Source of the DNA: Myxococcales bacterium
Lineage (GTDB): Bacteria; Myxococcota_A; UBA9042
Assembly: GCA_009692425.1 (NCBI GenBank)
Contig: SHZF01000006.1
Coordinates: 5,704 to 69,703 of the forward strand
Length of the DNA: 64,000 bases
Reading direction: 5' to 3'
Shown here: one piece after another, positions 5,916 through 51,407 of the stretch
Layout of the letters: each line of letters starts with the position of its first letter
How positions within the stretch are numbered: the first letter of the stretch is position 1
The notes under the pieces: generated by a model
Seen by the model: only the letters and a program-made list of their open reading frames with translations
What the model was told of the DNA's origin: nothing
The model's database searches: none
Program-made: the position numbers and the translations under genes

Positions 5916-5924
5916 GGGAACTCG

Positions 5925-9457: not shown

Positions 9458-10210
9458 ATGGTTGCTGCCCGACCGCTCCTGATCGTCGTGCCGTGCTACA
9501 ACGAAGCGGCGCGTCTGGCTCCGGATCAGTTCGTAGCGTTTGCGAACGCGGAGCCCGGCATCGGCTTTGTTTGCGTCGACGATGGCAGCACCGATTCGAC
9601 ACGGCGGGTGCTGCACGATCTCGCGACTGCAGCAGCAGGCGGCGTCCACGTGGTCGAACTCGACCGCAACGGCGGCAAGGCCGAGGCTGTGCGGCGCGGG
9701 TTGCAGCACGCGTGTTCGCTCAACGCAACCATGGTAGGGTACTGGGATGCGGACTTGGCAACGCCGCTGGACGCCATCGTCCGGTTTCGTGAAGCGCTGG
9801 CCGCCCGCCCCGGCCTCCACGTGGTCCTCGGTGCGCGGGTAAAACTGCTGGGCCGCGCCATCGACCGCACGCCGAGCCGCCACGTCGTCGGGCGCGTCTT
9901 TGCGACGCTGGCTTCGATGGCCATCGATCTGCCGGTGTACGACACGCAATGCGGTGCCAAGCTGCTGCGGAACAGCGAAGTCCTGCGCGACGCCCTGGCC
10001 ACGCCGTTCCGCTCCCGCTGGGCATTTGACGTCGAGTTGCTGCTGCGCCTGAAACGAGGCTTCGCGGCGCAGCAAACCGGGTTGGAGGCGGTTTGCTGCG
10101 AACTCCCGCTCGACAGTTGGCGCGACGTGCATGGCTCGAAACTGAAAGCAGCGGACTTGCCACGCTCGCTGGCCGAATTGGGCCGCATCTGGTGGGAGGG
10201 GCGGCGGTGA
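9458..10210 (+). CDS. Family-2 glycosyltransferase of the polyprenyl-phosphate sugar synthase type (DPM1/GtrB/CsbB-like)
   Basis: PLLIVVPCYNEAARL...VCVDDGSTDST...YWDADLATP (the DxD-type motif). Confidence 0.75.
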   Translation: MVAARPLLIVVPCYNEAARLAPDQFVAFANAEPGIGFVCVDDGSTDSTRRVLHDLATAAAGGVHVVELDRNGGKAEAVRRGLQHACSLNATMVGYWDADLATPLDAIVRFREALAARPGLHVVLGARVKLLGRAIDRTPSRHVVGRVFATLASMAIDLPVYDTQCGAKLLRNSEVLRDALATPFRSRWAFDVELLLRLKRGFAAQQTGLEAVCCELPLDSWRDVHGSKLKAADLPRSLAELGRIWWEGRR

Positions 10211-12503: not shown

Positions 12504-14693
12504 CTACAGCAAGCCCGTGTCGAATCCGGCCGCGCGGTAGACCTTGCCCGCGTTCTTGCACTCCTGGCGCGCCGCGAACTCAAAGTGGCGAAAGTGGACC
12601 ATCGTGCCTTCTGCCGCGGCCTGGTACGCGCCGCGCAGTACCGCGTTCTTGATGTGGCCGCCGGACAGTTCGAAGCGCCGGCCGAGTTCGTCCCAGTCCA
12701 TGGCCGCATCGACCGGACAGGTCCGGGGCACCAGCGTCTTCCAGATGCGCCCGCGCAGATCCGCTTCGGGGAACGGGAAGTGCACCTTGAAGTTGATGCG
12801 CCGCTGGAACGCTTTGTCGATGTTCTTCTCCAGGTTCGTCGTCAGGATCACGATGCCTTCGAAGTTCTCGATCTCCTGCAACAGCATGTTCGTCGCCATG
12901 TTGCTGTAGCGGTCCACGCTCGAATCGACCTTCGTGCGGCTTGCGAACAGCGAATCGGCCTCATCGAACAGTAGGATGCCGTGGCTGGCGCGCGCGGTCT
13001 GGAAGATTTTCTCGATGTTCTTCTCGGTCTCGCCGATCCACTTCGACACGACGCGCGGGATCGCGATCTGGAAAAGCTGCTGGTCCATCTCGTTGGCCAG
13101 GATCGTCGCACACAGCGTCTTGCCGGTGCCAGGGTCGCCCGAAAACAGCGCGACGAGGCCCTTGCCGGTCGTCAGTTTGGCGCCGAAGCCCCAGTTGTGG
13201 ATCACGTGGAGCCGCTGCTTGGCCGCCGTGAACATCTCGCCGATGTCCTCGACCGTCTCCTTGGGCACGATCAGGTCGGCCAGCTTGAGTCCCGCGCGGC
13301 GCCGCACCGCATACTCGTCGAGGCTGGCCCGAATCTGTTCGTGGCACGCGGTGCGCAACATCTCGTGCGAGATCACCGGCGCTTCGGGGTTGGCGGCGAA
13401 GGCACGGTTGACCGCCACCTGCATCGCATTGCGCAGCAGCGCGCCGGGGAACTGGTACTGGCCCGCGGTCGACGCCACGTCGCAGTCCGGCGCAAACGCC
13501 ACCCCTTCGGGCTTGTGCAGTTCGAGGATGCGGCGGCGCTCGTCGGCCCCCGGCGTCTCGAGCACGAGTCGCTGCAGCACGAAGCGGTCGAGGTTGCTGT
13601 CCAGCGCGGAACTGTCGAGCGACGTGAGCACCGTGATGCCCGGGTGGCGCTGCAGCATCTCCTGCACGTCGCCGACGCGCGCCGAGCCCTTGCCGAGCAC
13701 GCCATCGACGCCATCGAGCACGGTCACGGCGTCCAGCAGCCGCGCCTGGTCGAGCGAACTGAGCAGCGTGCGCCGAAAGTCGGGCTCGGGCATTTCCGTC
13801 AGCTTCGTCGCGTCGAGTTCCAGCAGCGGCTTGCCGAGGAACTTGCAGATGCCGTGCACGACCATCGTCTTGCCGGTGCCGGGCGGCCCCGACACTTCGA
13901 CGACGATGCCGAGCGGCAACGCGAACGGCGACGATTCGAGCCGAAACGCCTGGCGGCGCGCCTGGATGTCGAGCAGCGTGACCAGCGGCGCCAGCGTGCC
14001 CTCCGGCAGCACGACGTCTTCGAGCCGTGTCGTAGGACGGTGGAACGTCGCAAAACTGCTCATGGTCGTATCGAGCAGGCCGACCTCGCCGAGCAGCAAC
14101 TGCAGCGTGCGCGGTGCCGGCAACACCTCGTAGCCCAGCAGGTTTTCGCCGCCCTGATCGCGCGGTCGCTCGATTTGCACCAGCCGGCTGCGGCGCAGAT
14201 CGGACTCCGGCAAGAAGCGCCCACGCAGCCCCAACCGCTCGACCGGGTCGTGGACCAGGAACTCCAGGCATAGCCGCACATCGACGTAGTTCGCCAGCAG
14301 GTTGTCGTTGAAGCGGGCGATGGCGTCGCGCACATCCACATCGACATGCGGTGCCACGCTGAGCAGCAGGATAAGACGGTCGATGTCGTCGAGTTCGGCC
14401 TGCTGCGCCAGTTGATCGATCGGCAGTTGGATGCCGCGCGTCGCCGCTGCCTCGGCAATCGCCTGCAACGCGTTCGCGTGGGATTGCACTTCCACCTGCG
14501 TCGGCTCGACGGAAAGCACGGCTTCGTCTTCGTTGAGCCCGGCCGCGCGCGCCTGGCGCACCTGGGTCGCCATCACGAGGCGGGCGCGCAGGTGTTGGCA
14601 AGCGGTTGCCAGCCATTGCCGACACAACCGCAGGCGCACGGCGGGGTCGACAGGGACCTCGGTCTTGGCGGGGACGAGCTTCAGGCGGGCCAT
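12504..14693 (-). CDS. Tandem AAA+ ATPase (729 aa): N-terminal ~270-aa domain, a degenerate first AAA module (GPPGTGKT, weak Walker B) and an intact second AAA module (GDPGTGKT / LLFDEADSL)
   Basis: Both P-loops are seen in translation. Sensor-like residues (TTN...) follow the second domain. The gene is monocistronic: divergent from ccmF and convergent with the glycosyltransferase operon. Confidence 0.8.
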   Translation of the reverse strand: MARLKLVPAKTEVPVDPAVRLRLCRQWLATACQHLRARLVMATQVRQARAAGLNEDEAVLSVEPTQVEVQSHANALQAIAEAAATRGIQLPIDQLAQQAELDDIDRLILLLSVAPHVDVDVRDAIARFNDNLLANYVDVRLCLEFLVHDPVERLGLRGRFLPESDLRRSRLVQIERPRDQGGENLLGYEVLPAPRTLQLLLGEVGLLDTTMSSFATFHRPTTRLEDVVLPEGTLAPLVTLLDIQARRQAFRLESSPFALPLGIVVEVSGPPGTGKTMVVHGICKFLGKPLLELDATKLTEMPEPDFRRTLLSSLDQARLLDAVTVLDGVDGVLGKGSARVGDVQEMLQRHPGITVLTSLDSSALDSNLDRFVLQRLVLETPGADERRRILELHKPEGVAFAPDCDVASTAGQYQFPGALLRNAMQVAVNRAFAANPEAPVISHEMLRTACHEQIRASLDEYAVRRRAGLKLADLIVPKETVEDIGEMFTAAKQRLHVIHNWGFGAKLTTGKGLVALFSGDPGTGKTLCATILANEMDQQLFQIAIPRVVSKWIGETEKNIEKIFQTARASHGILLFDEADSLFASRTKVDSSVDRYSNMATNMLLQEIENFEGIVILTTNLEKNIDKAFQRRINFKVHFPFPEADLRGRIWKTLVPRTCPVDAAMDWDELGRRFELSGGHIKNAVLRGAYQAAAEGTMVHFRHFEFAARQECKNAGKVYRAAGFDTGLL

Positions 14694-36084: not shown

Positions 36085-36632
36085 GCGCTTGTGCGACCGC
36101 GGCGTCGGCGCGAACGAGGCACGGGCCTTCGACCGTGCTGGGACCGGTCGTCGGCTGGGCCTTGTTGCTGGCCGTCGCCGGGCTGCGTGCCGTGGTGCCT
36201 GCGCCCGATTTTGCAGGGGCCACGGCAGAGCCGCGCGCGAACGAGACCCGCCTTGCCGCCCGAGGTTGCCTCGACCCCGTCACTGCGACCGCCCCGCAAT
36301 GGCAGGCGCTGCCCGGCGTGCGCCGCAAGCTGGCCGAAGCCCTCGCGACGCGCTGCCGCGGCACGCTCGACTGCCGAGCAGGCGCTTTGCCGGACGGTGT
36401 GGGCGGCCTGGGCCCCGTGCTGCGCGCGCGGGTTGGTCCTTGGCTATGCCAGCGCGGTCCCGCCGGGCACCTTCTCGAGTTCGAAGGCGTCGTGAAGCAC
36501 GCGCACGGCCAGTTCCGTGTACCGATCATCGATCACGACGGAAATCTTGATCTCGCTGGTCGAGATCAAAAGGATGTTGATCCCTGCGTCGCCGAGAGCC
36601 TGGAACATGCGCAACGCCACGCCGGGCTGTGA
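36081..36632 (+). CDS. ComEA-like helix-hairpin-helix protein. The 3' extent is uncertain: the ORF as read overlaps the convergent lysC by 189 nt.
   Basis: The GTG start overlaps the radC TGA (GTGA). An N-terminal hydrophobic segment ([13 protein letters not shown]) is followed by [20 protein letters not shown], which resembles the ComEA HhH motif (LNTA..EEL..LPGIG...A..I). The first in-frame stop is at 36632. Confidence 0.35.
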
Positions 36633-37706
36633 CCGCATGCCGGCGCCGACGACCGAAACCTTGGCGACGCCCTTGTTACAGTCCAGCGTCGTGAAGCCGA
36701 TCGCGTCGTGCTGCGCGTTCATCAGTTCAACCGCGCGGTCGGCGACGTTGCCCGCCACCGTGAAGCAGACATCGGTGCGGCCGTGGATCGCCGGGTTCTG
36801 GATGATCACGTCGACGTTGATGTGATCGTTCGCGAGCGCGCGAAACAGTGCGGCGGCCTTGCCCGGCTGGTCCGGTACGCCGTGCACCGTGAGCCACGCC
36901 GTGTTGCGGTCGTGGGCGATGCCGATGACGACCGCCCCTTCCATCCCGCTCTGCATCGCTGCCTCCTGTGGATCGGCGTCCGGCACGACCCAACTGCCCG
37001 GGCCGTCCACGAATGTGGACAGGCAATGGATGCGGACCCTGTATTTCAAGGCGAATTCAACTGATCGCGCCTGCAGCACCTTGGCGCCGAGACTGGCGAG
37101 TTCGAGCATCTCCTCGCACGAGATCACGTCGATGCGGCGTGCCTTGGCGTACACATTGGGGTCGGTCGTGTAGATGCCGTCGACGTCGCTGTAGATTTCG
37201 CAGGCATCGGCCTGCACCGCCGCCGCCAACGCAACCGCCGACAAGTCGCTGCCGCCGCGGCCGAGCGTGGTGATGTTGCCTGCCGCATCGACGCCCTGGA
37301 AGCCGGCCACGACCACGATCGCCCCGTCCGCCAGCGCTTCTTGCACCGGCTCGGCGTCGATCGTCTGGATGCGAGCCTGGCCATGGGAGCTGTCGGTTTC
37401 GATCCGCACCTGGTGGCCCAGAAAGCTGCGCGCGTCGGCCCCTTGCTCCTGCAGCGCCAAGGCCAGCAGCGCGATCGATACCTGCTCTCCGGTCGCAAGC
37501 AGCACGTCGATTTCGCGATCGTGTGGCTTCTTCGTCAGCTGGCTGGCGAGTTGGAGCAGGCGGTCGGTTTCACCGGCCATCGCCGACACCACGACGACGA
37601 CGCGGTGGCCGGCGCGGTGCGTTGCCAGCGCGCGGCGGGCGACGAGTTGGATGCGTTCGGCGCTGGCCATGGAGCTGCCGCCGAATTTCTGGACGATCAA
37701 GGACAT
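36444..37706 (-). CDS. lysC: Aspartate kinase
   Basis: [14 protein letters not shown]...[15 protein letters not shown]...two C-terminal ACT domains. Confidence 0.9.
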
Positions 37707-37722
37707 GTGGCGGTCGAAGGGT

Positions 37723-38697
37723 TCAGGGCCTGGCGGGCTGGACTTCGCTGAGCACCGCGAACTTCACGGTGGCGGGATGCGGCGTGATCGACAGGCCCTT
37801 GCTGACCGCTGCCGTCAGGCGTGCGGTGCGTTCGCTGCGGGCGATCGGCCCACCGACCTCGGCCACGACGAGGAACTGTGGAGGCTGGCGCACGAACGTC
37901 GCCACGGCGCGAGCGAGGCCTTCAACGCGCACGGCGACGTCCGCAGGGTCCACAATGCAGCGGCTGCCATCGGGGCAACCGCGCACCGAAACCGGCACGC
38001 CCGGCAGCGTGCGCTCGACGTCGCCTTCGTCGAGGTGCACCGACACAGTCACTTGATCCGCTCCCAAGCGCACAAGGTGTTCTGCCGGCGGCAACAGGCT
38101 CGCGACGACGCGCAGGTCTACCTCGGTGCCGGCGAGATCGACGGGAGTGGCACGCACGGACGCCACGCGGCGGACCGCCGACGCCGGTCCCGACAGGCGC
38201 ACCCGGTCGGGGTCGACCCGCAGGCTGCGCGGTCCCGCGCGAAAGCCTGGCGCCGCTTCGCCGGTGGTCGACGCCTCGACAAGGACCATCCGCTCCTCCA
38301 GTTTCTCCAGCCGCACGTCGAACGCCGTCGGCGTTGCCGACACCACGTCGATGTGCCGAACCGGAAGCTGCTGTTCGATCGCGCGCGCCTCGAAGATGTA
38401 GCGCTCCCCGTTGCGGTACGCGCCGAGGTCCACGACCAGCCGCAAGCTTGGGTCGCCGAGCAACTCGCGCACCCCCGCCCAGCGGCCCCGTACGCGGATG
38501 CGCAGGCGCTCTGGTGCCGTGCCCGTGAACACCTCGCCACGCCGCTGGTTTGTCAATACGACCGGCACGTCGAAGTCGGCCTCGCGCACGCTGTCGCGCT
38601 GGACGACGAGGTGGACCAGCACCGCCAACAGGACCGCCAGCGCCTTCAACCCGAAGTTGTGCACAGCCAATTCGCGCAGGCGATGGAGTAGCTCCAT
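37723..38697 (-). CDS. cdaR: YbbR-domain protein (CdaR-like regulator of diadenylate cyclase)
   Basis: An N-terminal TM helix ([14 protein letters not shown]) followed by repeated YbbR-like beta-rich segments. The ATG overlaps the cdaA stop (TGATG). Start taken at MELLHRL. The upstream in-frame extension is Arg-rich junk. Confidence 0.65.
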
Positions 38698-39692
38698 CAC
38701 GGCAAGCCTCCTTCGTCGCCGGCGGGCGCGGTCGGTTCGTGGGTTGCAACGGCCGGCACTTGGCTCGCCTGGGCCGGCTCCGGACCCGATTCGACGCGCG
38801 GCAGCTGCTGCGTCGGGCGCGCCGGTCGCGGTGCCGTGGCGGCGGGCCCGTGCACGTGGATGCGGCGGCGCCACGCCCGCTGCCATGGCGCCTGAGTGTC
38901 CGACTGGTCGCCGAATAGCAGGCGAAAGCGTTCGCGCAGGTCGGCCGGCGTCAGGTTCAGGTCGAGTTGGCCCATGTATGCCAGCGAACAGGTGCTCGTC
39001 TCTTCCGACACGATCACCACGACGGCATCGGTCTCGTCCGCCAGGCCCAATGCGGCCCGGTGGCGCGACCCGAGCGTGCCGGGGATGCCCGCGCCACCGG
39101 CAAGCGGCAAGAAGCACGCCGCCGCCGCCACACGCCCCTTCTGGATGATGACTGCGCCATCATGCGTCGCATTCGTGTGCTCGGGGATGAAAAGTGCCAG
39201 CAGCAGCTGCCACGAGACGTTGGCCTGCACCTTGACCCCGTCCTCGACGAACCGATCCAGCGGCGCCTCCTGCTCGATGACGATCAGCGCGCCGAGTTGG
39301 CGGCGGCTGAGTTCGGTCGTGGCGCGCAACACCTCTTCGAGCATCTCGCTGGCGGCCGGGTTGCTCGTCGAGAACACGATCGGCGCCCGGATGAACGATG
39401 TCAGCGCGCGGCGGATGTCGTCTTGGAACAAGATCGCCAGCAGCACGACGATCGAGGTGATGAAGCGGTCGAGCAACCAGTTGACCGTTGGCAGGTCGAG
39501 CACCTGATCCTGGCTCACCCAATACACGCCGAACAGCATCGCGATCGCGACCAGCATCGCGCCGGAGCGGGAGCCGCGCAGCAACCGCAGCAACTGGTAG
39601 ATGAGGATCGCGACCAGCGTGATGTCGAGCAGCCAACGCCAGCTCAGCAGCTTGGGCAGCAGCAGCTCGAAGCTTGTCACGCTACCTCCCAA
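38697..39692 (-). CDS. cdaA: Diadenylate cyclase (DisA_N domain), membrane-anchored CdaA type
   Basis: Three N-terminal TM helices, then HDGAVIIQKGRVAAAACFLPL....GSRHRAALG....VVVIVSEETS, the DAC-domain motifs (DGA, RHRAA). Confidence 0.8.
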   Translation of the reverse strand: MGGSVTSFELLLPKLLSWRWLLDITLVAILIYQLLRLLRGSRSGAMLVAIAMLFGVYWVSQDQVLDLPTVNWLLDRFITSIVVLLAILFQDDIRRALTSFIRAPIVFSTSNPAASEMLEEVLRATTELSRRQLGALIVIEQEAPLDRFVEDGVKVQANVSWQLLLALFIPEHTNATHDGAVIIQKGRVAAAACFLPLAGGAGIPGTLGSRHRAALGLADETDAVVVIVSEETSTCSLAYMGQLDLNLTPADLRERFRLLFGDQSDTQAPWQRAWRRRIHVHGPAATAPRPARPTQQLPRVESGPEPAQASQVPAVATHEPTAPAGDEGGLP

Positions 39693-39704
39693 CAGGCTGC
39701 TGCG

Positions 39705-40568
39705 TCAGCCGGCGTCGCGAATCGCCTTAGCCACATCGACGACCTCTCGCAGTGCGGCGACGTCGTGCACGCGCACGAACGCGGCTCCGGCGAGTACGGC
39801 GGCCGTCACCGCGGCGGCCGTAGCGAAGAGCCGGTCACGCGGCCCCGGCGCGGGCCGTCCGGCGGCGGCAACCACACCACCGAGAAACGACTTGCGCGAG
39901 GGACCCAGATACAGCGGCAGCCCGAGGGATTCAAGGGCTGGTTGACGCCGCAACAGCGCGAGGTTCTGGGCCAGGCTCTTGCCGAAGCCGAGACCGGGAT
40001 CGATCGAGAGCTGCGTGCGCGCCACGCCGGCGGCCTGCGCCCGGGCCACGGCTCCGGCCAGCCCCGCCGCGATGACGTGCACCGCGCCTTCGACGTCGTC
40101 TGGCAACGCTTCGGCGCGGGTCGTCCAGCCCATCGCAGCCGGCGCAATCGGACAATGCATGAGAACCCACGCGGCGCCCGCAGCCGCGACGACCGCGCCC
40201 ATCGCGGGGTCGCCGAAGCCGCTCCCGTCGTTGACCATGACGGCACCCGCCCGCAGCGCGGCGGCGGCGACCGCTGCGTGGCGCGTGTCGACCGCGATCG
40301 GCACGGATACGCGCTGCCGCAAGGCCAAGATGGCGGGCACGACGCGTGCCAACTCCAACTCGACGCTCACAGGTGCCGCGCCCGGCCGGGTCGACTCGCC
40401 GCCCACATCCAGCAGGTCGGCTCCTGCCAGCGCCAGTTCCGCCCCGCGCGCCGCCACCGCGGCGGGGTCTGCCAATTCGCCGCCGTCGGAGAACGAGTCG
40501 GGCGTGGCGTTGAGGATGCCCACGAGGTACGGGCGCCTGAGGTCCAAGGTGGTGTCGCCCAAGTGCAT
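39705..40568 (-). CDS. folP: Dihydropteroate synthase
   Basis: LVGILNATPDSFSDGG....DLLDVGGESTRPGA...VPISVDT...MVNDGSGF (pterin-binding motifs). Start at MHLGDTT. The upstream ORF extension is repeat-derived junk. Confidence 0.85.
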   Translation of the reverse strand: MHLGDTTLDLRRPYLVGILNATPDSFSDGGELADPAAVAARGAELALAGADLLDVGGESTRPGAAPVSVELELARVVPAILALRQRVSVPIAVDTRHAAVAAAALRAGAVMVNDGSGFGDPAMGAVVAAAGAAWVLMHCPIAPAAMGWTTRAEALPDDVEGAVHVIAAGLAGAVARAQAAGVARTQLSIDPGLGFGKSLAQNLALLRRQPALESLGLPLYLGPSRKSFLGGVVAAAGRPAPGPRDRLFATAAAVTAAVLAGAAFVRVHDVAALREVVDVAKAIRDAG

Positions 40569-40613
40569 CGCGCTTCCTTGCCCGGAGCGGACGCCAGCGC
40601 CCCGAGCGCACCC

Positions 40614-40685
40614 CGTGCCCCGATCGCCTCCCGTGCCCCGATCGCCTCCCGTGCCCCGATCGCCTCCCGTGCCCCGATCACCCGG
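40614..40685. repeat. 18-bp tandem repeat CGTGCCCCGATCGCCTCC, about 3.7 copies, in the ftsH-folP intergenic spacer
   Basis: Counted directly in lines 40561-40690. Three perfect copies, and a fourth ending ...GATCAC. Confidence 0.9.
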
Positions 40686-40695
40686 GCCGACGCCG

Positions 40696-42609
<1,914 letters not shown>

Positions 42610-42706
42610 GGACTTGTAGTGTTTCAACGCGCGCTCCGTCGGCCGGGGGCAGTCGCCCACGCTTGGCTGCAGCGGGCCTGTTGCGCAAACACCGCCGTCC
42701 TGCAAG

Positions 42707-43753
42707 TTAGTCCGCAGGGGCGGGGTCCGCAACGTCGCGGGCGACGATTCGCCACCCGGTGCCCGCCGTCGTGACAAGCAACCCATGAACATAACATGGA
42801 GTTCGTCGGCCCCGTTGGTGCCAGCGCCACACGTTGTCGAGCGCGCGCAAGCTCGGCGCCGCTGTGCCCAATCGGGACGCCAGGTGGCGCACCAGCGCGA
42901 GCGCGCAGGGCCGGTCGAGCGCAACCCCAGCAAGATCGACGACCATGGACCTGTGGGCCGGATCCTCGACGATGCGGGTCCCGAGCGCGAGCCGAATCCA
43001 CCCGTCGAGCGCGCCATCGTGCTGCGCCAGGGCGTCGGCGGTGCGCGCCAGTCCGCGGACGGCACCCGGCAGGGCCCGTTCAAGTGCCGGCAGGGCATCG
43101 CTGCGCACCCGCGTTCGCGCATGGCGAGCATCGCGATTCATCGGGTCGAGGTCGGCCGTCGCAAGCCAACCCGCCCACCGTGCCCACGCGGCGAGTTGGG
43201 AACGGTCGAGATCGAGGGCCGGTCGCACGACCCCGTCTTCGCGCATCCGACGTATCCCGGCCAGCGCGTCGGGCCCCGCTCCGCGCGCCATCCGCAACAG
43301 CAACGTCTCTGCGAGGTCGTCTGTGTGGTGCGCAGTCGCTGCGCACGCGCAACCGAGGTCGCCGCGCACGCGAGCCAGCGCCCGGTAGCGTTCATCGCGT
43401 GCTCGCGCCTCCACCTGCGCCCCCGGCGTCAGGACGACACGTACAACGGCAACGGGCAGCGCGAGCGACTCGGCCAGCAAGCGGACTTGGGCAGCCACGG
43501 CGCCGCTTTCGGGCCGCAGTCCGTGGTCCACGTGCGCCACCGCAAGGGTGTGCCCGAGCGAAGGCTGCAGCGCCACCAGCAGCGCGAGCAGGCCCATCGA
43601 ATCCGGGCCGCCGCTGCACGCGACCAGCACGCGGTCGCCCGGATGCCACAAGCCATGGCTGCGGACCGCTCGCCGCACCATGTCGAGCGACTGGCGCAAG
43701 GGCCGCGCGTGTGGCAGGTCGGCGGGAGTTGCGGGCGTGCGATCCGGTTCCAT
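42707..43753 (-). CDS. tilS: tRNA(Ile)-lysidine synthetase
   Basis: PP-loop [15 protein letters not shown]...[10 protein letters not shown]. It sits in the conserved tilS-ftsH order. It occupies the lower part of the long minus ORF 42707-45628, whose upper part is an antisense artefact. Confidence 0.8.
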
Positions 43754-43843
43754 GGCGACCGCGACTGGCGAAGGTGGGAATCTCATTGCACCGCATGCGC
43801 GCCGCGGCGTACACTTTTTGCCCTTGCCGCCGAGGCCTCTCCG

Positions 43844-45595
43844 ATGCCGAACAACCTGCTGCCCGTGCCAGACGCGGTCGTTGCTCCCCCTGCGCCGCTG
43901 CGTCGCTGGCCGAAACTGCCCGCGACGCCCCACGCTGTCGCATCGGCCCAGTTGCCGGCGGACGCGGACCCCCGCCTGACTGCCTATGCCGCGGCCGTCC
44001 ATGCCAGCGGCGCGCCAACGCGGCACCTGTCGCTCGACGGACGGCCGATCGACGCCTGCTACCTGCCTGCCCGCCCCGACGTGGGCCACTTCGAGCAGGT
44101 CGGCGTGCCCGGCCAGTACCCGTACACGCGCGGCGTCCACGGCGACATGTACCGCGGCAAGCCTTGGACGATGCGCATGTTCGCCGGGTTCGGCACGCCT
44201 GAAGACACGAACCGGCGCTTCAAGTTCCTGCTCGCCCAGGGCCAGACCGGCCTGTCGACCGCATTCGACATGCCGACGCTGATGGGCTACGACCCCGACC
44301 ATCCGATGAGCGAGGGCGAAGTGGGGCGCGAAGGCGTGTCGGTGGCCCACCTCGGCGACATGGACCGGCTGTTTGCCGACATCCCGCTGGGAGACGTGAC
44401 CACGTCGATGACGATCAACGCGCCTGCGGTGGTGCTGTTGGCCCTGTACGTCGCGGTTGGCGAGCGCCGCGGCGTGCCCCACCACCGCATTGCGGGTACG
44501 CTCCAGAACGACATCCTGAAGGAATTCATCGCCCAAAAAGAGTGGATCAGCCCGCCGCGTCCGTCGATGCGCATCATTCGCGACATGCTGGCGTACTGCA
44601 CGCGCGAACTGCCGCGTTGGAACACGATCAGCATCAGCGGCTACCACATCCGCGAAGCCGGCGCGACGGCCGTGCAGGAACTCGCGTTCACGCTGGCCGA
44701 TGGCATCGGCTACGTGGAAGCGGGCCTCGAAGCCGGACTCGACGTCGATGCGTTCGCTCCGCGCCTGTCGTTCTTCTTCGACATCCATGACGATTTCTTC
44801 GAGGAGATCGCAAAGTTGCGCGCGGCGCGGCGGCTGTGGGCCCGGCTCATGAAGGAGCGCTACGGCGCCAAGAACCCGCGCTCGATGATGCTCCGCACGC
44901 ACTGCCAGACCGCCGGCGTGTCCCTGACGGCCCAGCAACCACTGAACAATGTCGTGCGCACGACCTGGCAGGCGCTCGCGGCCGTGCTCGGCGGTACGCA
45001 GTCGCTGCACACGAACAGCCTCGACGAGACCTACGCCTTGCCGACCGAAGACACCGCGAAGTTGGCATTGCGCACGCAGCAACTGCTGCTCGACGAGTCG
45101 GGCGTGGCCAACACGGTCGATCCCTTGGGTGGCTCGTGGTTCGTCGAGCACCTGACGGACCAGATGGAGGCCGAAGCGCTCGTCATCTTGAAGAAGATCG
45201 ACGACATGGGTGGTATCGTCCACGCGGTCGAAATCGGCTATCCGCAGCGCGAAATCGCCGAGTCCGCGTTCCGTTTCCAGCAGCGCGTGGAGTCGGGCGA
45301 GCGCGGCATCGTGGGCGTGAACCGCCATGTCGAGTCGGCGTCTGCCTCGATTCCGCTGCTGCACATCGACGCAGAAGTCGAGCGGGGTCAGTTGGCGCGC
45401 TGCCTGCAGTGGAAGCGCGACCGCAACGCGGCGGCCGCCCAAGCTGCCCTCGACGCCGTCAAGCGTGCGTGTGCATGCACCGAAAACGTCGTGCCGCCGA
45501 TTCTCGCCGCCGTGCACGCTGGGGTCACGGTCGGCGAGGTCAGCGACGCCTTTCGCCAAGTGTTCGGCGTGTACCGCGACCCGGCTTTCCTGTAG
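43844..45595 (+). CDS. Methylmalonyl-CoA mutase family protein, catalytic (substrate-binding TIM-barrel) domain only (584 aa), with no B12-binding domain
   Basis: [52 protein letters not shown]....HTNSLDE: the acyl-CoA mutase core. The protein ends right after the barrel plus linker, with no DxHxxG domain. Confidence 0.8.
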
Positions 45596-45670
45596 CCAGA
45601 ACAGTGGGTCGACGCCGTGTTTCCGCACGACGCCGTCTCCTGCCGCGTTCGTGCCCGGGTGCCCACGGGA

Positions 45671-47398
45671 TCAGTCGCCGACGAGCACGACGACCGCGAT
45701 CTGGCCGGCGCGGGTGCCGTGATCCTGCACCACGTGGAGACCGAGCCGCCGACCTTCCGGTGCCGTCACGATATCGGGCAATTGCAGCCGGCGCAGTTCG
45801 GGCAGCGACGCAGCCCACGCCCGGAGCCGGCCACGCAGCAAGCCCCGATCGCGCGCGGCGTCGAGCGCCTGGGCCGATGCGCCCTCGAGTTCTCCTTCGA
45901 GCACTCGTTCGGCAGCGAGCCGGGCGACGGCATCGAGCGACAGGTCAGGGTCCAGCCGGGGGAGCCCTTTTTCCGAGCGCTGCCGCTCGATTTCCGAATG
46001 CAATCGAGCCGCTTCCACCGACTCATCGATGTCGATGACCGGCCGCGAGAAGAGCTGTGTCAACCACCAGCGGCGCCGGCCCCCGTCCTGTTCCTCGCCC
46101 GCAACGCCCAGTCCGACATGCGTGAGGTCGGGGTCGAGCAGGTTGCGGCGGTGCCCCAGACTGTGCAGCAGGCCGAGTTCCGCCTCCCAGATCGACGTGT
46201 TGTGTGCCAGGTTCTCGGCCGACGCCACGGCGCGGTAGTTGGCCGCTTCCAGGCGCTGCACGTGCAGGCCGGTCGTGGGCGAGCGGTGGCCAAAGAAGCC
46301 GCGGTCGCGCATGTCGACGCTGTGGTTGCGCGCCACTGCTGCCAGCCCGTCGTCCCAACGCAACAGGGGCACCCCGTGGGCAACGCGGTCGCGGTTCAGG
46401 AGATCGAACGCCCAGCGCGCCGCCTCGTCGGCGCTCGTGAGATGCCCCTCATCCGGAGCCTGACGCGCAATCAAGCGGCGCGGAGGGGCCTGCCCGACGT
46501 AGACCCGGACCTGGACGACCTTGCCCGGTCCATCGGGCCCGGTGCCAACCAACTGCATCTCGAGTGCGCCGACGTGTGCGCCGACGTCTACTTCGACCGC
46601 GATCCGATCGCCGGAGCGCTCGAACCGGCCGTGATCGAAGCGACCGTCTGGCCACAATACGAGCGCTTGCAGATCGCTCCAGGTCTCGAGCAGGCGGCCG
46701 CGCATCGACCACGTACCGCCCAGCGCCGCCGTGGCGGGAAATGGCGCCAACTCGACCGGCATGCGCGTGCCGAGCACGCCGACGTGGCGCGGCAGGCGTT
46801 CCGCCGGGTTCCACACCTCGCCGACCCCGACCCGCAGGGGACCGGACCCCGAAGGTGGCTCTTGCAGCACGGCCGCAATCGCCTTGCGCAGCGATGCTTC
46901 GTCGTCGGTCGTCGTGCGCAGGTGCTGGAACACCGTGTCGCCTGCGATCGCTCCGCTGCCGGCAACCAGAAAGTCGCGGGCGTCGGCGGGCGACTCGGCG
47001 GCCGACTCCGAGGCCTGCACGACCAGTTCGCGCGCGGCGCGGCCAAGGTGGCGGTCGTACGTGGCGCGTCCCCGGGACAGTTCGCGCACGAGCGCGTCGT
47101 AGTGGTGGTCCGTCTCGTTGGCCGGCGCTGCCAGGTACGTCGATGCCGGCGGCTCGGACAGCACGACTTCGACGTCGCGCGTCGGCTCCGCGCGGCTCTC
47201 AGCGAGGGCGGGAGCCGCCGGTTCGCGCGCGACCGCCGTCGAAGCCTTGCGCGCCGAAGCCAGGCGCGGTGCCGATGGGGTCGGCTGGTGCCAAGCCAAA
47301 CCCGCGCGGGCGTTGTCGGGCGCGCGCGCGGCTCCCCACGCCGCCGCAGCAAGCACCGCCAGTGTCCCCGCGATCAAGAGGCGTCGGCCAGCACCCAT
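45671..47398 (-). CDS. Secreted protein with CAP/SCP/PR-1-like domain(s) (576 aa)
   Basis: Signal peptide MGAGRRLLIAGTLAVLAAAAWGAARA. CAP-like block GLAAVARNHSVDMRDRGFFGHRSP....AENLAHN. The start is the internal Met at 47398. The 45617-47863 plus ORF is an antisense artefact. Confidence 0.6.
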   Translation of the reverse strand: MGAGRRLLIAGTLAVLAAAAWGAARAPDNARAGLAWHQPTPSAPRLASARKASTAVAREPAAPALAESRAEPTRDVEVVLSEPPASTYLAAPANETDHHYDALVRELSRGRATYDRHLGRAARELVVQASESAAESPADARDFLVAGSGAIAGDTVFQHLRTTTDDEASLRKAIAAVLQEPPSGSGPLRVGVGEVWNPAERLPRHVGVLGTRMPVELAPFPATAALGGTWSMRGRLLETWSDLQALVLWPDGRFDHGRFERSGDRIAVEVDVGAHVGALEMQLVGTGPDGPGKVVQVRVYVGQAPPRRLIARQAPDEGHLTSADEAARWAFDLLNRDRVAHGVPLLRWDDGLAAVARNHSVDMRDRGFFGHRSPTTGLHVQRLEAANYRAVASAENLAHNTSIWEAELGLLHSLGHRRNLLDPDLTHVGLGVAGEEQDGGRRRWWLTQLFSRPVIDIDESVEAARLHSEIERQRSEKGLPRLDPDLSLDAVARLAAERVLEGELEGASAQALDAARDRGLLRGRLRAWAASLPELRRLQLPDIVTAPEGRRLGLHVVQDHGTRAGQIAVVVLVGD

Positions 47399-47477
47399 GC
47401 AGCCACGGTAGGGCTGCCGCGCGGCCGATGCAACCATTTTGGCGTGTGCAGAGGCGCCGCGGGCACAGGCGGGCCCC

Positions 47478-49454
47478 TCAATCGGCGTCGGCTACCGCCA
47501 CCGGCGTCGCTGCGGCGCGCGCGACGGACGCGGTCAGCAGCACGGCGATCGCCTGGTCGAGGCCGCCATCTTCGACCGTCACGACGCAGGTCACGCCCAG
47601 CGCGAGCAACCGGGCGCGGTCCGCAGCAGGGATGGTGCCGCCGACAATCACCGCAATGTCGGTGCCGCCCCGCGCTGCGAGTTCTGCCAGCGTCGCCGCC
47701 GCGAAAGCGAGGTGCGCGCCCGACAGGCTCGACAGGCCGATGGCGTCGACGGCCTCGGCGATGGCGGTCGCGGCGACGTCTGCCGGCGTGGTGCCGGGAC
47801 CCAGCCACACCACCTCGGCGCCGGCATCGCGCAAGCCCAGGGCGAGCAACCGCAGCGCGTTGATGTGGCCGTCGAGGCCGGCCTTGGCCAGCACGATGCG
47901 CCGGCGCGGCTGCGGCATCGCAGGGCCACCGGCTCCGCGGGCCGTGGGGCTGCGCGCCAGGCCATCGACGCCGAGTGGGGCGCGCCAGCGCGGCCCGGCA
48001 CTGGCCAGCAGCACGTGGGTCCATTCGCCCGTCGTGCCGCCGGCCGCCGCGAACGCCACCGAAGCCGCCAACACGCTGGTGCCTGCCCGCGCCGCTTCGG
48101 CGAGACCCGACTTCGCGTGCTCCCATGTCGCCGCGTCGCGCGCCATGCGCCAGTCGTGCAGATCGGCCGCCCGCCGCTGTCCCGCGGCACCATCATCCGG
48201 GTCGCTCCCCGTGCCGTCGCCCGGGCCCGTCGCGAGCCCCAGGAAGGGCACCACGTCTTCGAAACAGTTCACGCCGACCCACGGCCGCGTCCCGGTCTCG
48301 ACACCCGTTCGCCACTGCGCCATGCGCTGCGCCAGCGTGGTCGCCAACTCCTCGATGGCGCGGCCATACCCCATCGCCGGTACCCGCAGCGCGATCTGCC
48401 GTGCGGCCGCTTCGATGCGCGCCGTCTCCGCCTCGATCACGTGCGAACCGGCAAAGATGTCGGGCCAGTCCGCGATGCCCGTCTCATGCAGGAGCACCTG
48501 TTGCGTGCGCAGGGCCAGCGTCTGTTCGGCTGCGTCCGGCAGGGCGAGGGCCTCGCGGAATCCCGGCAACTGGAGCGCGCCCACACGGGCGGATGCCGAC
48601 AGCACCGCCGGCAACGCCTGCAGGGCGATGCGGACGATGTTGAGTTCAGGCTGTTGCGCCGCCAGCGTCAGCGACCGGACCTGGCAGCCCGCGCGAAATC
48701 GCGGCGTGCACCCGTAGCGTTCCTGACACAGTGCCGGCCACAGGCGCGCGTACGCCCGCACCTTGCAGATTTCGGGCACAAGTTCGAGCCCGGAATTGAT
48801 GAAAAAGCTCACCGTATCGACAACGCGGGCAAAAGTCGCGCCGTCGAGCCGCGGCCGTACCGTATCGAGCAGCAGCAGGGCGCCGCCGAGGGCCCAGCCG
48901 ACTTCGTCCACGGGACCCGCGCCCGATTCCATCAGGTGATACCCACAGGCATTCATCGGGTTCCATCGCGGTGTCCACTGCGCCGACGTCACCACGAGGT
49001 CCGCCTGCAGCCGCAGCGACATGGCGGGGTCGAAGATGTAGGTGCCGCGAGCGACGAATTCCTTGAGCAGATCGTTCTGGGTCGTGCCGCGGAGTCGCTC
49101 GCGGGCCACGCCCTGCCGATCCGCGAGCGCGAGGTACAGCGCGTACAGCCAGGGTGCCGTCGCGTTGATCGTCATCGACGTGTTGGCGGTAGCGAGATCG
49201 ATGCCGTCGAAAAGAGCCGCCATGTCGCCAAGGTGGGCGACCGACACGCCGGCGCGGCCGACCTCGGGCAACGCGAGCGGGTCGTCGGGGTCGTAGCCGC
49301 ACTGCGTCGGCAGGTCGAACGCCACCGATAGGCCGGTCTGACCGCGCGCGAGGTTGTCGCGGAAGCGGCGGTTCGTTGCAACCGCGTCGCCGAAACCCGC
49401 GTAGGTCCGGACGATCCACGCAGGCTTGGAGAGAGTGGCGGGCAAGGGCGTCAC
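47478..49454 (-). CDS. Methylmalonyl-CoA mutase family protein, fused catalytic and B12-binding domains (658 aa; Ecm/MeaA-like size)
   Basis: The core IVRTYAGFGDAVATNRRFRDNLARGQTGLSVAFDLPT is paralogous to the 43844 gene. The C-terminal Rossmann domain has a B12 motif variant AKAGLDGHINA (DxHxxA instead of DxHxxG) plus SxL and GG motifs. It lacks the N-terminal arm present in the paralog. Confidence 0.8.
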   Translation of the reverse strand: MTPLPATLSKPAWIVRTYAGFGDAVATNRRFRDNLARGQTGLSVAFDLPTQCGYDPDDPLALPEVGRAGVSVAHLGDMAALFDGIDLATANTSMTINATAPWLYALYLALADRQGVARERLRGTTQNDLLKEFVARGTYIFDPAMSLRLQADLVVTSAQWTPRWNPMNACGYHLMESGAGPVDEVGWALGGALLLLDTVRPRLDGATFARVVDTVSFFINSGLELVPEICKVRAYARLWPALCQERYGCTPRFRAGCQVRSLTLAAQQPELNIVRIALQALPAVLSASARVGALQLPGFREALALPDAAEQTLALRTQQVLLHETGIADWPDIFAGSHVIEAETARIEAAARQIALRVPAMGYGRAIEELATTLAQRMAQWRTGVETGTRPWVGVNCFEDVVPFLGLATGPGDGTGSDPDDGAAGQRRAADLHDWRMARDAATWEHAKSGLAEAARAGTSVLAASVAFAAAGGTTGEWTHVLLASAGPRWRAPLGVDGLARSPTARGAGGPAMPQPRRRIVLAKAGLDGHINALRLLALGLRDAGAEVVWLGPGTTPADVAATAIAEAVDAIGLSSLSGAHLAFAAATLAELAARGGTDIAVIVGGTIPAADRARLLALGVTCVVTVEDGGLDQAIAVLLTASVARAAATPVAVADAD

Positions 49455-49475
49455 GTCATCGGCGCCATGCGCGCG

Positions 49476-49526
49476 TTGCGCAGCGTGTCGTTCCGCAGCG
49501 TGTTCTTCCGCAGCGTGTTCTTCCGC
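49476..49526. repeat. 15-bp direct repeat TTCCGCAGCGTGTTC, 3.3 copies (two identical, one with 2 mismatches), in the 78-bp spacer between the rplS stop and the mutase start
   Basis: Counted directly in lines 49441-49530. Confidence 0.9.
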
Positions 49527-49532
49527 GGGGCC

Positions 49533-49907
49533 CTATTCGGCCGCGTCAGATTCGTTCGCACCGCGCGGGTCGATCTTGCGCAGGCGGGCCGCGCGGCCCT
49601 GCAGGTCGCGCAGGTAGTAGATGCGGCTGCGGCGCACCTTGCCCGACGACATCACCTCGAGCTTCAGGATGCGCGGGCTGTGGAGCGGAAAGATGCGCTC
49701 GACACCGATGCCGTTCGAGATCTTGCGCACCGTGAACGTCGAGTCGACGCCCGAGCCCGTGCGGCGCAAGACGACGCCCTCGTAGACCTGGATGCGCTCT
49801 TTTTCGCCCTCGATGATGCGGCCGTGTACGCGGACGGTGTCGCCGGTGCGGAAGTTAGGCAAGTCGAAGCGAAGGTGGGCGCGCTGCACGGTGTGAACAA
49901 GGCTCAT
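49533..49907 (-). CDS. rplS: 50S ribosomal protein L19
   Basis: ...[28 protein letters not shown]...[21 protein letters not shown].....G.VRR..IYYLR. Confidence 0.92.
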
Positions 49908-49978
49908 CTCAGGTCTCCCTGCCGGTCCCTCGCGGGTGGTCGGCTTCTCGCGGCTGGCGGCGTGCGGGCTGCACGCCG

Positions 49979-50572
49979 TCAGTGGTCCCCGGTCAGGCGG
50001 TCGAGCACGATGGCTGCGGCCGCGCGGACGGACAAGTGGTTGTAGCGCGGGCCGGCGGGGCTGCCGTCGAGCGCGTCGAATGCGGGCGCACGGCCCACGG
50101 GCGGCAGGCGCAAGTCGGCGGTCGCGACGACCGAGGGTGCCAAGCCCCAGCCCGTGCCGAACACGACCACAATGGGTGCTCCGTTCGGGTCGCCCAGTCG
50201 TTCGCGCAGTTCCGCAAACGGCGTCGTATCGCGTTGCATGCGGGCGCCCGTCATCACCAGCACCGGCGCGCGGCCGGTGCGTTCGCGTACGTCAACGCGC
50301 ACGGCGTCGAGCGACGGCAGGGTGCACAGCCGCCGCATGGCGTCGGCGCGCCGCTCATGGCGGCTGCCTTGGCCTTGGGTCCAATGCCCCACGACCTCGT
50401 CCACCATGCGCTGTTGCAGCGTGACCGGAGTCACGATGTAGACCGCGCTCGCACCAAACGTTCGGCCAGACCGAGCCAGGTCGTGCAGGTCGACGTTCGT
50501 GATGGCTGTCGCCACCACCTCCCCGCGCCGGTTGAGCACGGGGTGGTGAACGAGGGCGAGAAAGATAGCCAT
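49979..50572 (-). CDS. Conserved hypothetical protein in the trmD-rplS cluster, possibly with a SPOUT-like fold
   Basis: N-terminal [36 protein letters not shown] and C-terminal [11 protein letters not shown]....[16 protein letters not shown] resemble SPOUT methyltransferase motifs. There is no firm family call. Confidence 0.45.
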
Positions 50573-50585
50573 GTGCTCCTGGAAG

Positions 50586-51401
50586 TCAACCGCTTTCTGT
50601 CGGTTTCGCGAGTCCTGTGGTCATTTCGTCGACCACCGGTGCCGCCGACAAGCCTGCCAACTGGGCCCGATCGTCGGGCGACAGCGGCGCGCTGGCAAGC
50701 AGATCGGGCCGCCAGCGCGCGGTCCGTGCCAACGACTGTGCGCGGCGCCAACGCACGATCGCCGCGTGATCGCCCGACAGCAACACCGCGGGCACGTCGC
50801 GGCCCTGCCACTGCCGCGGCCGCGTATAGTGCGGGTGCTCGACGAGGCCATCGGCGTGCGATTCTGCCGACAGTGACGCCGCGTTGCCGACCACGCCCGG
50901 CAGCAGGCGGGCGACCGCTTCGACGACCGCCATCGCGGCGACTTCGCCCCCTTGCAGCACGAAGTCGCCGAGCGACAGGACCTCATCGCAGAGGTCTTCA
51001 ATGCGCGCGTCGAAGCCCTCATAGCGTCCGCACAGCAGCACGAGGCCACCCGCTTCGGCGTACTGCTCGGCCCTGCGCTGGTCGAAACGGGCCCCGGCCG
51101 GCGACAGCAGCACGGTACGGATCCCGGCCGGCCGCCCCACGCACACCGCCGCGAGGCACGCGGCGATCGGCTCCGGTTTCAACACCATGCCCGCCCCGCC
51201 ACCGAACGGGGCGTCGTCGACCGTGTGGTGCCGGTCCATCGCAAACGCGCGCCAGTCGTGGACCGCAAGGTCGATGCGCCCGGCCGCGATCGCCTTGCCG
51301 ATCAGGCTCTCCCGGCGCAGCGACTCGAAAAGCCCGGGAAACAGCGTGAGCACGTCGAACCGATAGCACGGCGGCACGGCGGCCGCGGCGGGGGCTTGCA
51401 T
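50586..51401 (-). CDS. trmD: tRNA (guanine37-N1)-methyltransferase
   Basis: RFDVLTLFPGLFE.....GKAIAAGRIDLAVHDWR.FA.DRHHTVDDAPFGGGAGMVLK...LLCGRYEGFD.R.....DEVLSLGDFVLQGGE. Confidence 0.9.
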   Translation of the reverse strand: MQAPAAAAVPPCYRFDVLTLFPGLFESLRRESLIGKAIAAGRIDLAVHDWRAFAMDRHHTVDDAPFGGGAGMVLKPEPIAACLAAVCVGRPAGIRTVLLSPAGARFDQRRAEQYAEAGGLVLLCGRYEGFDARIEDLCDEVLSLGDFVLQGGEVAAMAVVEAVARLLPGVVGNAASLSAESHADGLVEHPHYTRPRQWQGRDVPAVLLSGDHAAIVRWRRAQSLARTARWRPDLLASAPLSPDDRAQLAGLSAAPVVDEMTTGLAKPTESG

Positions 51402-51407
51402 GGCGGC

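Follow-up and report, generated by a model that had tools for sequence, protein, structure and literature searches.

Two described systems come closest to the genes treated here. One is isobutyryl-CoA mutase (ICM), made of the subunits IcmA and IcmB or of the fused protein IcmF, and the other is ethylmalonyl-CoA mutase (ECM), also annotated as MeaA. In ICM and IcmF, Phe and Gln replace Tyr89 and Arg207 of methylmalonyl-CoA mutase (MCM). The genes of the ICM subunits are unlinked in Streptomyces, and SCO4800 and SCO5415 of S. coelicolor are presumably icmB and icmA. A transcriptome table has these two at distant loci, under the names 'isobutyryl-CoA mutase' and 'methylmalonyl-CoA mutase' respectively (PMC6629963). 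Likely relatives of both systems sit side by side in the 64,000 nucleotides of contig SHZF01000006.1 (Myxococcales bacterium, assembly GCA_009692425.1) that were analysed here, a stretch called the window below. Its two acyl-CoA mutase genes encode protein 1 (43844-45595, plus strand) and protein 2 (47478-49454, minus strand). Located on opposite strands, they are separated by 1.9 kb and by the gene of an unrelated CAP-domain protein.

The reading that explains most, and that we hold to be probable, is that protein 1 is an IcmA-type large subunit which needs a separate small subunit, and that protein 2 is a fused mutase of the ECM lineage with an alanine, Ala533, that is fixed in its clade. 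The two would be adjacent only here. Protein 1 would interconvert isobutyryl-CoA and n-butyryl-CoA as the large subunit of a two-subunit mutase, its active site holding the Phe/Gln pair of ICM and IcmF in place of the Tyr/Arg that hold a carboxylate. It would have to bind a separate IcmB-type B12 subunit of ~135 aa, probably with the help of a MeaB-type chaperone, and we infer that both partners are encoded elsewhere in the genome. Protein 2 would most likely turn (2R)-ethylmalonyl-CoA into (2S)-methylsuccinyl-CoA in an ethylmalonyl-CoA-type pathway. It is predicted to bind cobalamin in the base-off/His-on mode via Asp528 and His530, with Ala533 replacing a Gly.

Protein 2 starts with a GTG at 49454, ends with a TGA at 47478 and has 658 aa. 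PF01642 matches residues 11-483, but only from position 45 to 508 of its 512, so the N-terminal part is missing. A B12-binding domain follows at 47568..47900 (PF02310, residues 519-629, E-value 5e-19; also TIGR00640). An earlier note on this DNA, made from the letters alone, had described just such a fused 658-aa mutase, lacking the N-terminal arm and with the B12 motif DGHINA (residues 528-533, 47856..47873), and this description holds. The missing arm is however no oddity of protein 2 but a trait of the lineage: four ECMs of the characterised type and a Leptospira homologue start at the same place. In the alignment, protein 2 and the ECMs begin some 10-15 residues before the W-I-x-R-T-Y-A-G motif.

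The substrate barrel (48006..49424) contains RTYAGF with Tyr18, VARGTY with Arg136, CGYH with Tyr172-His173, and ALQLPGF. Tyr18, Arg136 and Tyr172-His173 correspond to the residues that hold the substrate carboxylate in MCM; the Tyr/Arg pair is common to ECM and MCM. Other motifs, derived from the alignment of this analysis and not from the literature, are shared with ECM and not with MCM. These are NTSMTINATAPW, GTTQND, C-x-Y-H and Q-V-x-S, and in place of the H-T-N of MCM, both protein 2 and ECM have Q-L-P preceded by an insertion of 3 residues (ALQLPGF in protein 2). The residue combination Y-R-Y-H-Q-L-P is found in 118 of 120 homologues of protein 2. Over the barrel core (residues 10-400), identity is 47-51% to four ECMs of the characterised type, 44% to the Leptospira homologue and 37-39% to fused MCM. 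Against the MCM equivalog NF006944, protein 2 scores 365 bits, where the cutoff is 876 bits.

Neighbour-joining trees place the family of protein 2, here called F2, as the sister of a clade formed by the ECMs of Ruegeria, Paracoccus, Methylobacterium and Streptomyces with the Leptospira homologue, and apart from MCM, ICM and 2-hydroxyisobutyryl-CoA mutase (HCM). On plasmids and chromids, the best matches (42-45% identity) are genuine ECM genes, from Methylobacterium, Streptomyces, Paracoccus, Tritonibacter and Ruegeria. That of Ruegeria bears the annotation meaA and has ccrA two genes away. Protein 2 is itself identical to an NCBI record titled 'MAG: protein meaA [Myxococcales bacterium]' (MAG stands for metagenome-assembled genome). 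An AlphaFold model, built from a shallow alignment of 12 sequences, has a mean pLDDT (per-residue confidence) of 74.5 and a pTM (predicted template-modelling score) of 0.80, and is weak at residues 259-326. The model shows the two-domain mutase fold and matches holo human MCM with a template-modelling score of 0.75-0.77.

Much of what can be said about the function of protein 2 comes from its relatives. In four of these, from both main branches and including the closest, the homologous gene is the last of an operon (L014, 70% identity; L015, 63%; L012, 63%; L011, 56%). The order is a Ccr-like reductase, optionally an HpcH/HpaI lyase, an acyl-CoA dehydrogenase of 531-557 aa, and then the mutase. 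There is overlap or direct contact between start and stop codons in L011, L012 and L015, and a gap of 4 bases between them in L014. Among solved structures, the dehydrogenase is best matched by (2S)-methylsuccinyl-CoA dehydrogenase (8ciw), along the full length and with an E-value of 4e-121, and it shares the N-terminal extension that is typical of this enzyme and defines it (PMC5798300). In L011 a MaoC protein beside the mutase has beta-methylmalyl-CoA dehydratase 8hgn as its best match (E-value 7e-81), making it a homologue of mesaconyl-CoA hydratase, and a malyl-CoA-lyase-type gene lies 5-7 kb upstream of the mutase.

Since the dehydrogenase and the MaoC protein would consume the product of ECM, the neighbourhood supplies a likely function for protein 2. 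The earlier note considered that the CoA ester could not be read from the sequence. This now seems too cautious for both proteins: protein 2 has the Tyr/Arg pair, the ECM motifs and relatives with methylsuccinyl-CoA dehydrogenase neighbours, and protein 1 has the Phe/Gln pair of ICM. In the genome studied here the gene of protein 2 is detached from the pathway operon, as it is in three other relatives.

Protein 1 runs from an ATG at 43844 to a TAG at 45595. The earlier note was right that it consists of a catalytic barrel with no B12 domain; the 584 aa given there are 584 codons including the stop, and the protein has 583. Its sole Pfam match is PF01642 (MM_CoA_mutase), at residues 66-575 and positions 5-512 of 512 in the profile, with an E-value of 9e-215. 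The N-terminal model TIGR00641 (acid_CoA_mut_N) matches as well, with 739 bits, and the B12 domain PF02310 was not found in protein 1. The earlier note had named a truncated pseudogene of a fused enzyme as a finding that would overturn its reading. Protein 1 is no such remnant, because the whole profile is covered, the relatives have 515-615 aa (with the exception of one 705-aa call), and a convergent gene follows 75 bp beyond the stop codon.

The earlier note had pointed to the positions of Tyr89 and Arg207 in MCM as informative, and the alignment there gives Phe113 and Gln231 in protein 1, next to Tyr18 and Arg136 in protein 2. Protein 1 thus lacks the Tyr/Arg pair of MCM. Its Ala140 corresponds to Asp117 of HCM, and its Tyr267-His268 to Tyr243-His244 of MCM. 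The motifs are R-M-F-A-G (in RMFAGF, 44174..44191), S-T-A-F-D and I-A-Q (in FIAQKEW, 44525..44545, which has no carboxylate-binding Arg). Control sequences scored as expected at these positions. A Brevibacillus large subunit, with the genes of methylmalonyl-CoA epimerase and a carboxyltransferase beside its own, gives Tyr/Ala/Arg (R-Q-Y-A-G, I-A-R), the MCM pattern. In the isobutylene degrader Mycobacterium sp. ELW1, the plasmid-borne HcmA gives Ile/Asp/Gln (R-Q-I-A-G, S-V-D-F-D, V-A-Q), the HCM pattern. The signature F-A-Q-Y-H is present in all 120 of the best database homologues (68-90% identity). By this signature, protein 1 is classed as a putative IcmA-type large subunit.

The relatives of protein 1 were studied in 80 GTDB loci, with flanks of up to 10 kb. 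A PF02310 small subunit of ~135 aa is encoded downstream of the large subunit in 16 of these, immediately so in 14, and ~2.2-2.4 kb away in L097 and L101. A meaB gene is found upstream in one of the 80. The 16 loci belong to more distant relatives (60-67% identity) from Binatia, Bdellovibrionales, Oligoflexia, Myxococcia and Eisenbacteria. In addition, a Deinococcus plasmid carries meaB, the small subunit and a large subunit that likewise has Phe/Gln. Given the invariant signature and the small subunits and meaB genes of the relatives, the family would therefore be a normal two-subunit ICM.

In the flanks of the 64 closer relatives, the small subunit was not found, nor was it on three further long contigs with relatives of protein 1. 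The closest GTDB locus is 78% identical to protein 1. The divergent tilS-ftsH neighbour is kept in the five closest GTDB loci, L104 and L001 (relatives at 60-78% identity); loci with tilS and ftsH beside the mutase gene comprise L001-L003, L026-L030 and L104. From the missing small subunit in the closer relatives, together with this synteny, it follows that the orphan arrangement is old and stable in the lineage. An orphan large subunit is in fact the common state here (64 of 80) and does not point to a defect.

Some side observations belong to these loci. In L018:4323-4708, on a plasmid of Deinococcus sp. KNUC1210, the small-subunit gene is frameshifted, has an in-frame stop and is absent from the PLSDB gene table. 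The GTDB records L029 and L030, whose proteins are 73-78% identical to protein 1 and whose tilS-ftsH synteny agrees with that of the window, go under the titles 'uncultured Enterobacteriaceae bacterium' and 'Klebsiella pneumoniae' (both MAGs); their taxonomy is almost certainly mislabelled. L024 and L025 share a conserved 156-aa open reading frame (ORF), located downstream of the mutase. It was considered as a cryptic small subunit and rejected, as it is lipoprotein-like and has no B12 motif.

Several results weigh against the combination of an IcmA-type large subunit and an ECM-lineage mutase. The specificity calls for both proteins are read from signature residues and gene neighbourhood, and the Phe/Gln rule was checked against the internal controls only. 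The signature F-A-Q-Y-H is also present in 80 of 80 GTDB loci, but this count is biased, as the peptide patterns by which these loci were drawn from the species representatives already contain the Phe and Gln motifs; the count over 120 homologues is less biased. No B12 small subunit or MeaB gene was found in the 64 kb by tblastn or regexes, which bears out the earlier note's remark that neither is adjacent, and the sole match was the fused B12 domain of protein 2. The queries were that domain, the small subunits of Streptomyces canus and of Mycobacterium ELW1 (HcmB), and two MeaB proteins; the regexes were D-x-H-x-x-[GAS]...S-x-L...GG and the MeaB P-loop. The window extends 43.8 kb beyond the locus on one side, 14.5 kb on the other. 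In a protein-database search with a Myxococcia IcmB, the best 120 matches were of the Myxococcia/Anaeromyxobacter type, and none was on the contigs of the window or its relatives.

For protein 2, the trees place it outside the clade of characterised ECMs, no ECM-specific NCBIfam model matches it, and no ECM structure is among its solved-structure matches. There is no ccr, mcd, mch or mcl in the window, and the operon is missing in 13 of the 17 neighbourhoods examined, the window included. Where the operon is present, its Ccr-like reductase of 385-391 aa (L011:1526-2680, L012:7124-8299, L014:6437-7594, L015:5955-7130) does align end to end with the Ccr model, but with only 52-75 bits versus a cutoff of 378. 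Its sole solved match is a Ccr with an E-value of 1.6e-6, and Ruegeria CcrA did not match at an E-value of 1e-10. This protein may be an enoyl-CoA carboxylase/reductase that has diverged very far, or simply a reductase. Finally, a basal subclade is linked to fabF and fabH instead of an ECM-pathway operon.

This basal subclade (L150:4280-10396, L107 and L112) is 51-53% identical to protein 2, has DGHINA and a GC content of ~62%. The gene order is a fabF-like ketoacyl synthase (KAS), a fabH-like KAS III, an ArsA/ParA-like P-loop ATPase, the mutase, and an overlapping ORF of 152-170 aa without a Pfam match. The ATPase might be a MeaB-like chaperone. A metagenome scan for relatives of protein 2 returned mostly canonical ECMs, which served as a control, and nine members of the clade, all of the fabF-fabH subclade. 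The canonical ECM loci of that scan have DGHSNG and a canonical ccr nearby.

It is conceivable, if unlikely, that protein 2 is not an ECM and that its clade has a specificity of its own, rearranging another alkylmalonyl-CoA or carboxylated CoA ester. The sister position of the clade, the distant reductase and the basal subclade with its fabF-fabH and ArsA-like neighbours all speak for this. So do motifs adjacent to the active site, where AGFG stands for AGHS, RAGCQVRS for RYGVQVNS and PGFREA for PAWNEA. On the other hand, the mutase gene of L012 overlaps with a full-length homologue of methylsuccinyl-CoA dehydrogenase at the stop codon of the latter, and the L011 mutase has the hydratase homologue beside it and the lyase-type gene upstream; taken together, these stand for the steps that come after ECM. 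A broader form of this idea is about as doubtful: the clade, from Myxococcota, Binatia and allies, would be a distinct branch of alkylmalonyl-CoA mutases in which D-x-H-x-x-A reshapes the pocket for the cobamide tail, working in a variant pathway with a divergent Ccr-like enzyme, while basal members feed FabH/FabF. If true, the reshaped pocket would mean a different cobamide preference or binding mode.

A little less probable again is that protein 1, here taken for an IcmA-type subunit, belongs to another branch without a carboxylate in its substrate, either as an HCM or with isovaleryl-CoA or pivalyl-CoA as its main substrate. Its closest solved structure is indeed HcmA (4r3u, E-value 3e-172). 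The HCM markers Ile90 and Asp117, present as Ile/Asp in the HcmA of ELW1, are however replaced by Phe113 and Ala140. Native pivalyl-CoA mutases have a residue smaller than Phe at the Tyr89 position. IcmF is known to convert isovaleryl-CoA and pivalyl-CoA as well (PMC10481361). The uncultured Myxococcia locus L101:9827-16181 also bears on this. There the small subunit is encoded 2.4 kb downstream of an ICM-type large subunit, and directly after it come a gene like that of 3-hydroxy-3-methylglutaryl-CoA lyase and an enoyl-CoA hydratase. This neighbourhood hints at a link to leucine/isovalerate metabolism.

The B12 motif of protein 2 needs separate treatment. Asp528 and His530 of DGHINA are followed by Ala533 where one would expect a Gly. 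Among the aligned sequences, this position is Gly in MCM, canonical ECM and small subunits, and the only exceptions are two members of the clade of protein 2. In the metagenome sample, canonical ECM loci have DGHSNG in all 68 cases with a readable motif. The earlier note proposed that the alanine may weaken binding. Taken further, this would make protein 2 a poor binder or non-binder of cobalamin, and a decaying or regulatory paralogue. There is a second departure that could be cited for this: towards the end of the domain, at 47560-47650 (residues ~620-630), the usual V-[FY]-[TG]-P of ECMs, MCMs and the other members of the clade is V-V-T-V-[EA]-D in protein 2 and in P0002, its closest relative, so that the change is restricted to a sub-branch.

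Yet the alanine is far from a private change. DGH[VITL]NA is present in 117 of 120 homologues by pattern, and in 116 by alignment, over a range of 52-100% identity. Asp528, His530, the preceding Lys, SSLSG (of the S576-x-L577 type) and Gly605-Gly606 are conserved, as are all the catalytic residues. The ORF is intact, and its G+C content at third codon positions is native (0.84-0.85). The model of the B12 domain is confident (pLDDT ~80-93), and its superposition on 2yxb and 4r3u_C, both chains of stand-alone small subunits, gives 1.5-1.6 Å over ~130 aligned residues. Because the alanine is fixed over such wide divergence, in genes that are kept in pathway operons, selection is indicated and not decay. 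On these alignments, DGHxNA is a hallmark of the clade. The domain is very likely functional and His-on, loss of function from DGHINA is unlikely, and the idea of a failing paralogue as a whole is very improbable. Weakened binding is in any case unproven.

Protein 1 is labelled 'methylmalonyl-CoA mutase N-terminal domain/subunit' in the sources, and most databases name it along these lines. It is also 52-58% identical to large subunits from archaea and Brevibacillus. A split MCM as found in archaea and some Firmicutes is nevertheless scarcely to be expected here, as both residues that bind the carboxylate are missing, while the Brevibacillus enzyme has its Tyr/Arg, and the score of 629 bits is under the 876-bit cutoff of NF006944.

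Least credible is that the two proteins cooperate, with protein 1 borrowing the B12 domain of protein 2 or the two forming a heterodimer like MCM alpha-beta: the short distance and the lack of any other B12 domain in 64 kb would fit, but the genes are on opposite strands around an unrelated one, the active sites are complete but different, no second mutase gene was found in the 80 loci of protein 1 and its flanks, and the gene of protein 1 was not found in any protein-2 locus examined. The juxtaposition is limited to this genome and to near-identical ENA contigs. The genes are adjacent by chance and unrelated in function. A metabolic link that runs from valine via isobutyryl-CoA, butyryl-CoA and crotonyl-CoA to ethylmalonyl-CoA is possible, and purely an inference of ours.

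The gene between the mutases encodes a secreted CAP/YkwD-domain protein of 588 aa (45671-47437, minus strand; TIGR02909, and PF00188 at residues 345-462) with a hydrophobic, signal-like N-terminus. It was correctly placed on the strand of the fused mutase by the earlier note. It possibly is co-transcribed with the gene of protein 2, and is otherwise a bystander. No homologue of it was found in the 80 loci of protein 1 and their flanks, and it does not resemble the ORF that lies downstream of the L008 mutase.

The surroundings are those of a housekeeping region with a G+C content of ~69%. To the left, all on the minus strand, are aspartate kinase (36444-37763), cdaA (38697-39704), folP (39705-40619), ftsH (40696 onward) and tilS, the PP-loop tRNA-lysidine synthase gene that is the divergent neighbour of protein 1 (42707-~43753, PF01171). 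To the right, directly upstream of protein 2, is a rimM-trmD-methyltransferase-rplS block, also on the minus strand. The same-strand neighbour rplS (ribosomal protein L19, PF01245, 49533-49907) is called from ENA contigs of 6-10 kb with a protein identical to protein 2. It is followed by an RNA methyltransferase (Methyltrn_RNA_4, 49979-50620) and trmD (Pfam, 50586-51407). Pfam scans covered most other large ORFs of the window and show housekeeping genes there too, among them topoisomerase I, ruvB, GTP cyclohydrolase I, fructose-1,6-bisphosphatase (FBPase), moaC and ccmF. No tRNA was found in the window, and neither was a riboswitch, the cobalamin class included (Rfam). Promoter and terminator scans returned nothing above chance.

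The high G+C content leads to long spurious ORF extensions in the window. The ftsH ORF counted from the ATG at 43131 (40696-43131, minus strand) has 811 aa and overlaps the 3' end of tilS; ftsH of relatives has 643 aa. Similarly, a 936-aa ORF at 42785-45595 on the plus strand, which contains protein 1, overlaps tilS and is an artefact. ENA called an overlong version of 903 aa, and this is why the exact protein 1 is absent from the records. A weak tblastn match from the partner search, at 9880-9933, lies within a glycosyltransferase-like ORF and was set aside. Elsewhere in the window, a radical-SAM protein adjoins a 386-aa ORF without a Pfam match (4551-7085, minus strand), and a 729-aa double AAA+ protein has an N-terminal winged-helix domain (12504-14693, minus strand). 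On plasmid pFER4 of Paracoccus ferrooxidans (L005:5998-13674), meaA is ~2-5 kb from ffh-rpsP-rimM-trmD, and at 47478-51407 of the window the gene of protein 2 comes straight after rimM-trmD-methyltransferase-rplS. Either chance or an ancient linkage may account for this.

Both genes are intact and ordinary members of known acyl-CoA mutase lineages. The conserved change from Gly to Ala is a minor curiosity, and nothing suggests a new mechanism. There are some consequences nonetheless. The label 'methylmalonyl-CoA mutase' is probably a misnomer for protein 1 and the many Myxococcota proteins related to it. For uncultured Myxococcota and related phyla, protein 2 suggests an ethylmalonyl-CoA-type pathway and, with it, a dependence on adenosylcobalamin. 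The enzymes of this pathway would stand well apart from their models in alphaproteobacteria and actinobacteria. The clade-wide alanine also amounts to a small natural experiment on cobamide selectivity.

Compared with known systems, protein 1 is most like IcmA/IcmB of Streptomyces cinnamonensis and the fused IcmF. IcmA likewise is a barrel-only large subunit of ~560-580 aa with Phe/Gln, its B12 domain is on a separate protein of ~135 aa, as in relatives of protein 1, and the partner gene need not be adjacent. Protein 1 differs in coming from Myxococcota, in its longer N-terminal stretch and in its conserved place beside tilS-ftsH. HcmA of Aquincola tertiaricarbonis (4r3u) is also barrel-only and has Gln at the Arg207 position, but its Ile90/Asp117 are Phe/Ala in protein 1.

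Ecm/MeaA of Rhodobacter sphaeroides, Methylobacterium extorquens and Streptomyces is the counterpart of protein 2: a fused barrel and B12 domain of ~640-670 aa, no N-terminal arm, Tyr/Arg/Tyr-His, and the motifs NTSMTINATAPW, GTTQND, Q-V-x-S and Q-L-P, with neighbours from the pathway in the relatives of protein 2. Protein 2 is however only 44-51% identical in the barrel core and belongs to a sister clade. It has D-G-H-x-N-A for D-G-H-S-N-G, and A-G-F-G for A-G-H-S after the Tyr. The reductase of its relatives is far from canonical Ccr, and in this genome its gene is outside the pathway operon. MCM, finally, as in human MMUT, MutB of P. shermanii and BhbA of S. meliloti, has the same fold as both proteins, and the equivalents of its Tyr89, Arg207 and His244 are kept in protein 2. 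Both proteins are under the equivalog cutoff (629 and 365 versus 876 bits); protein 1 is without the Tyr/Arg pair, and protein 2 without the N-terminal arm and the H-T-N stretch.

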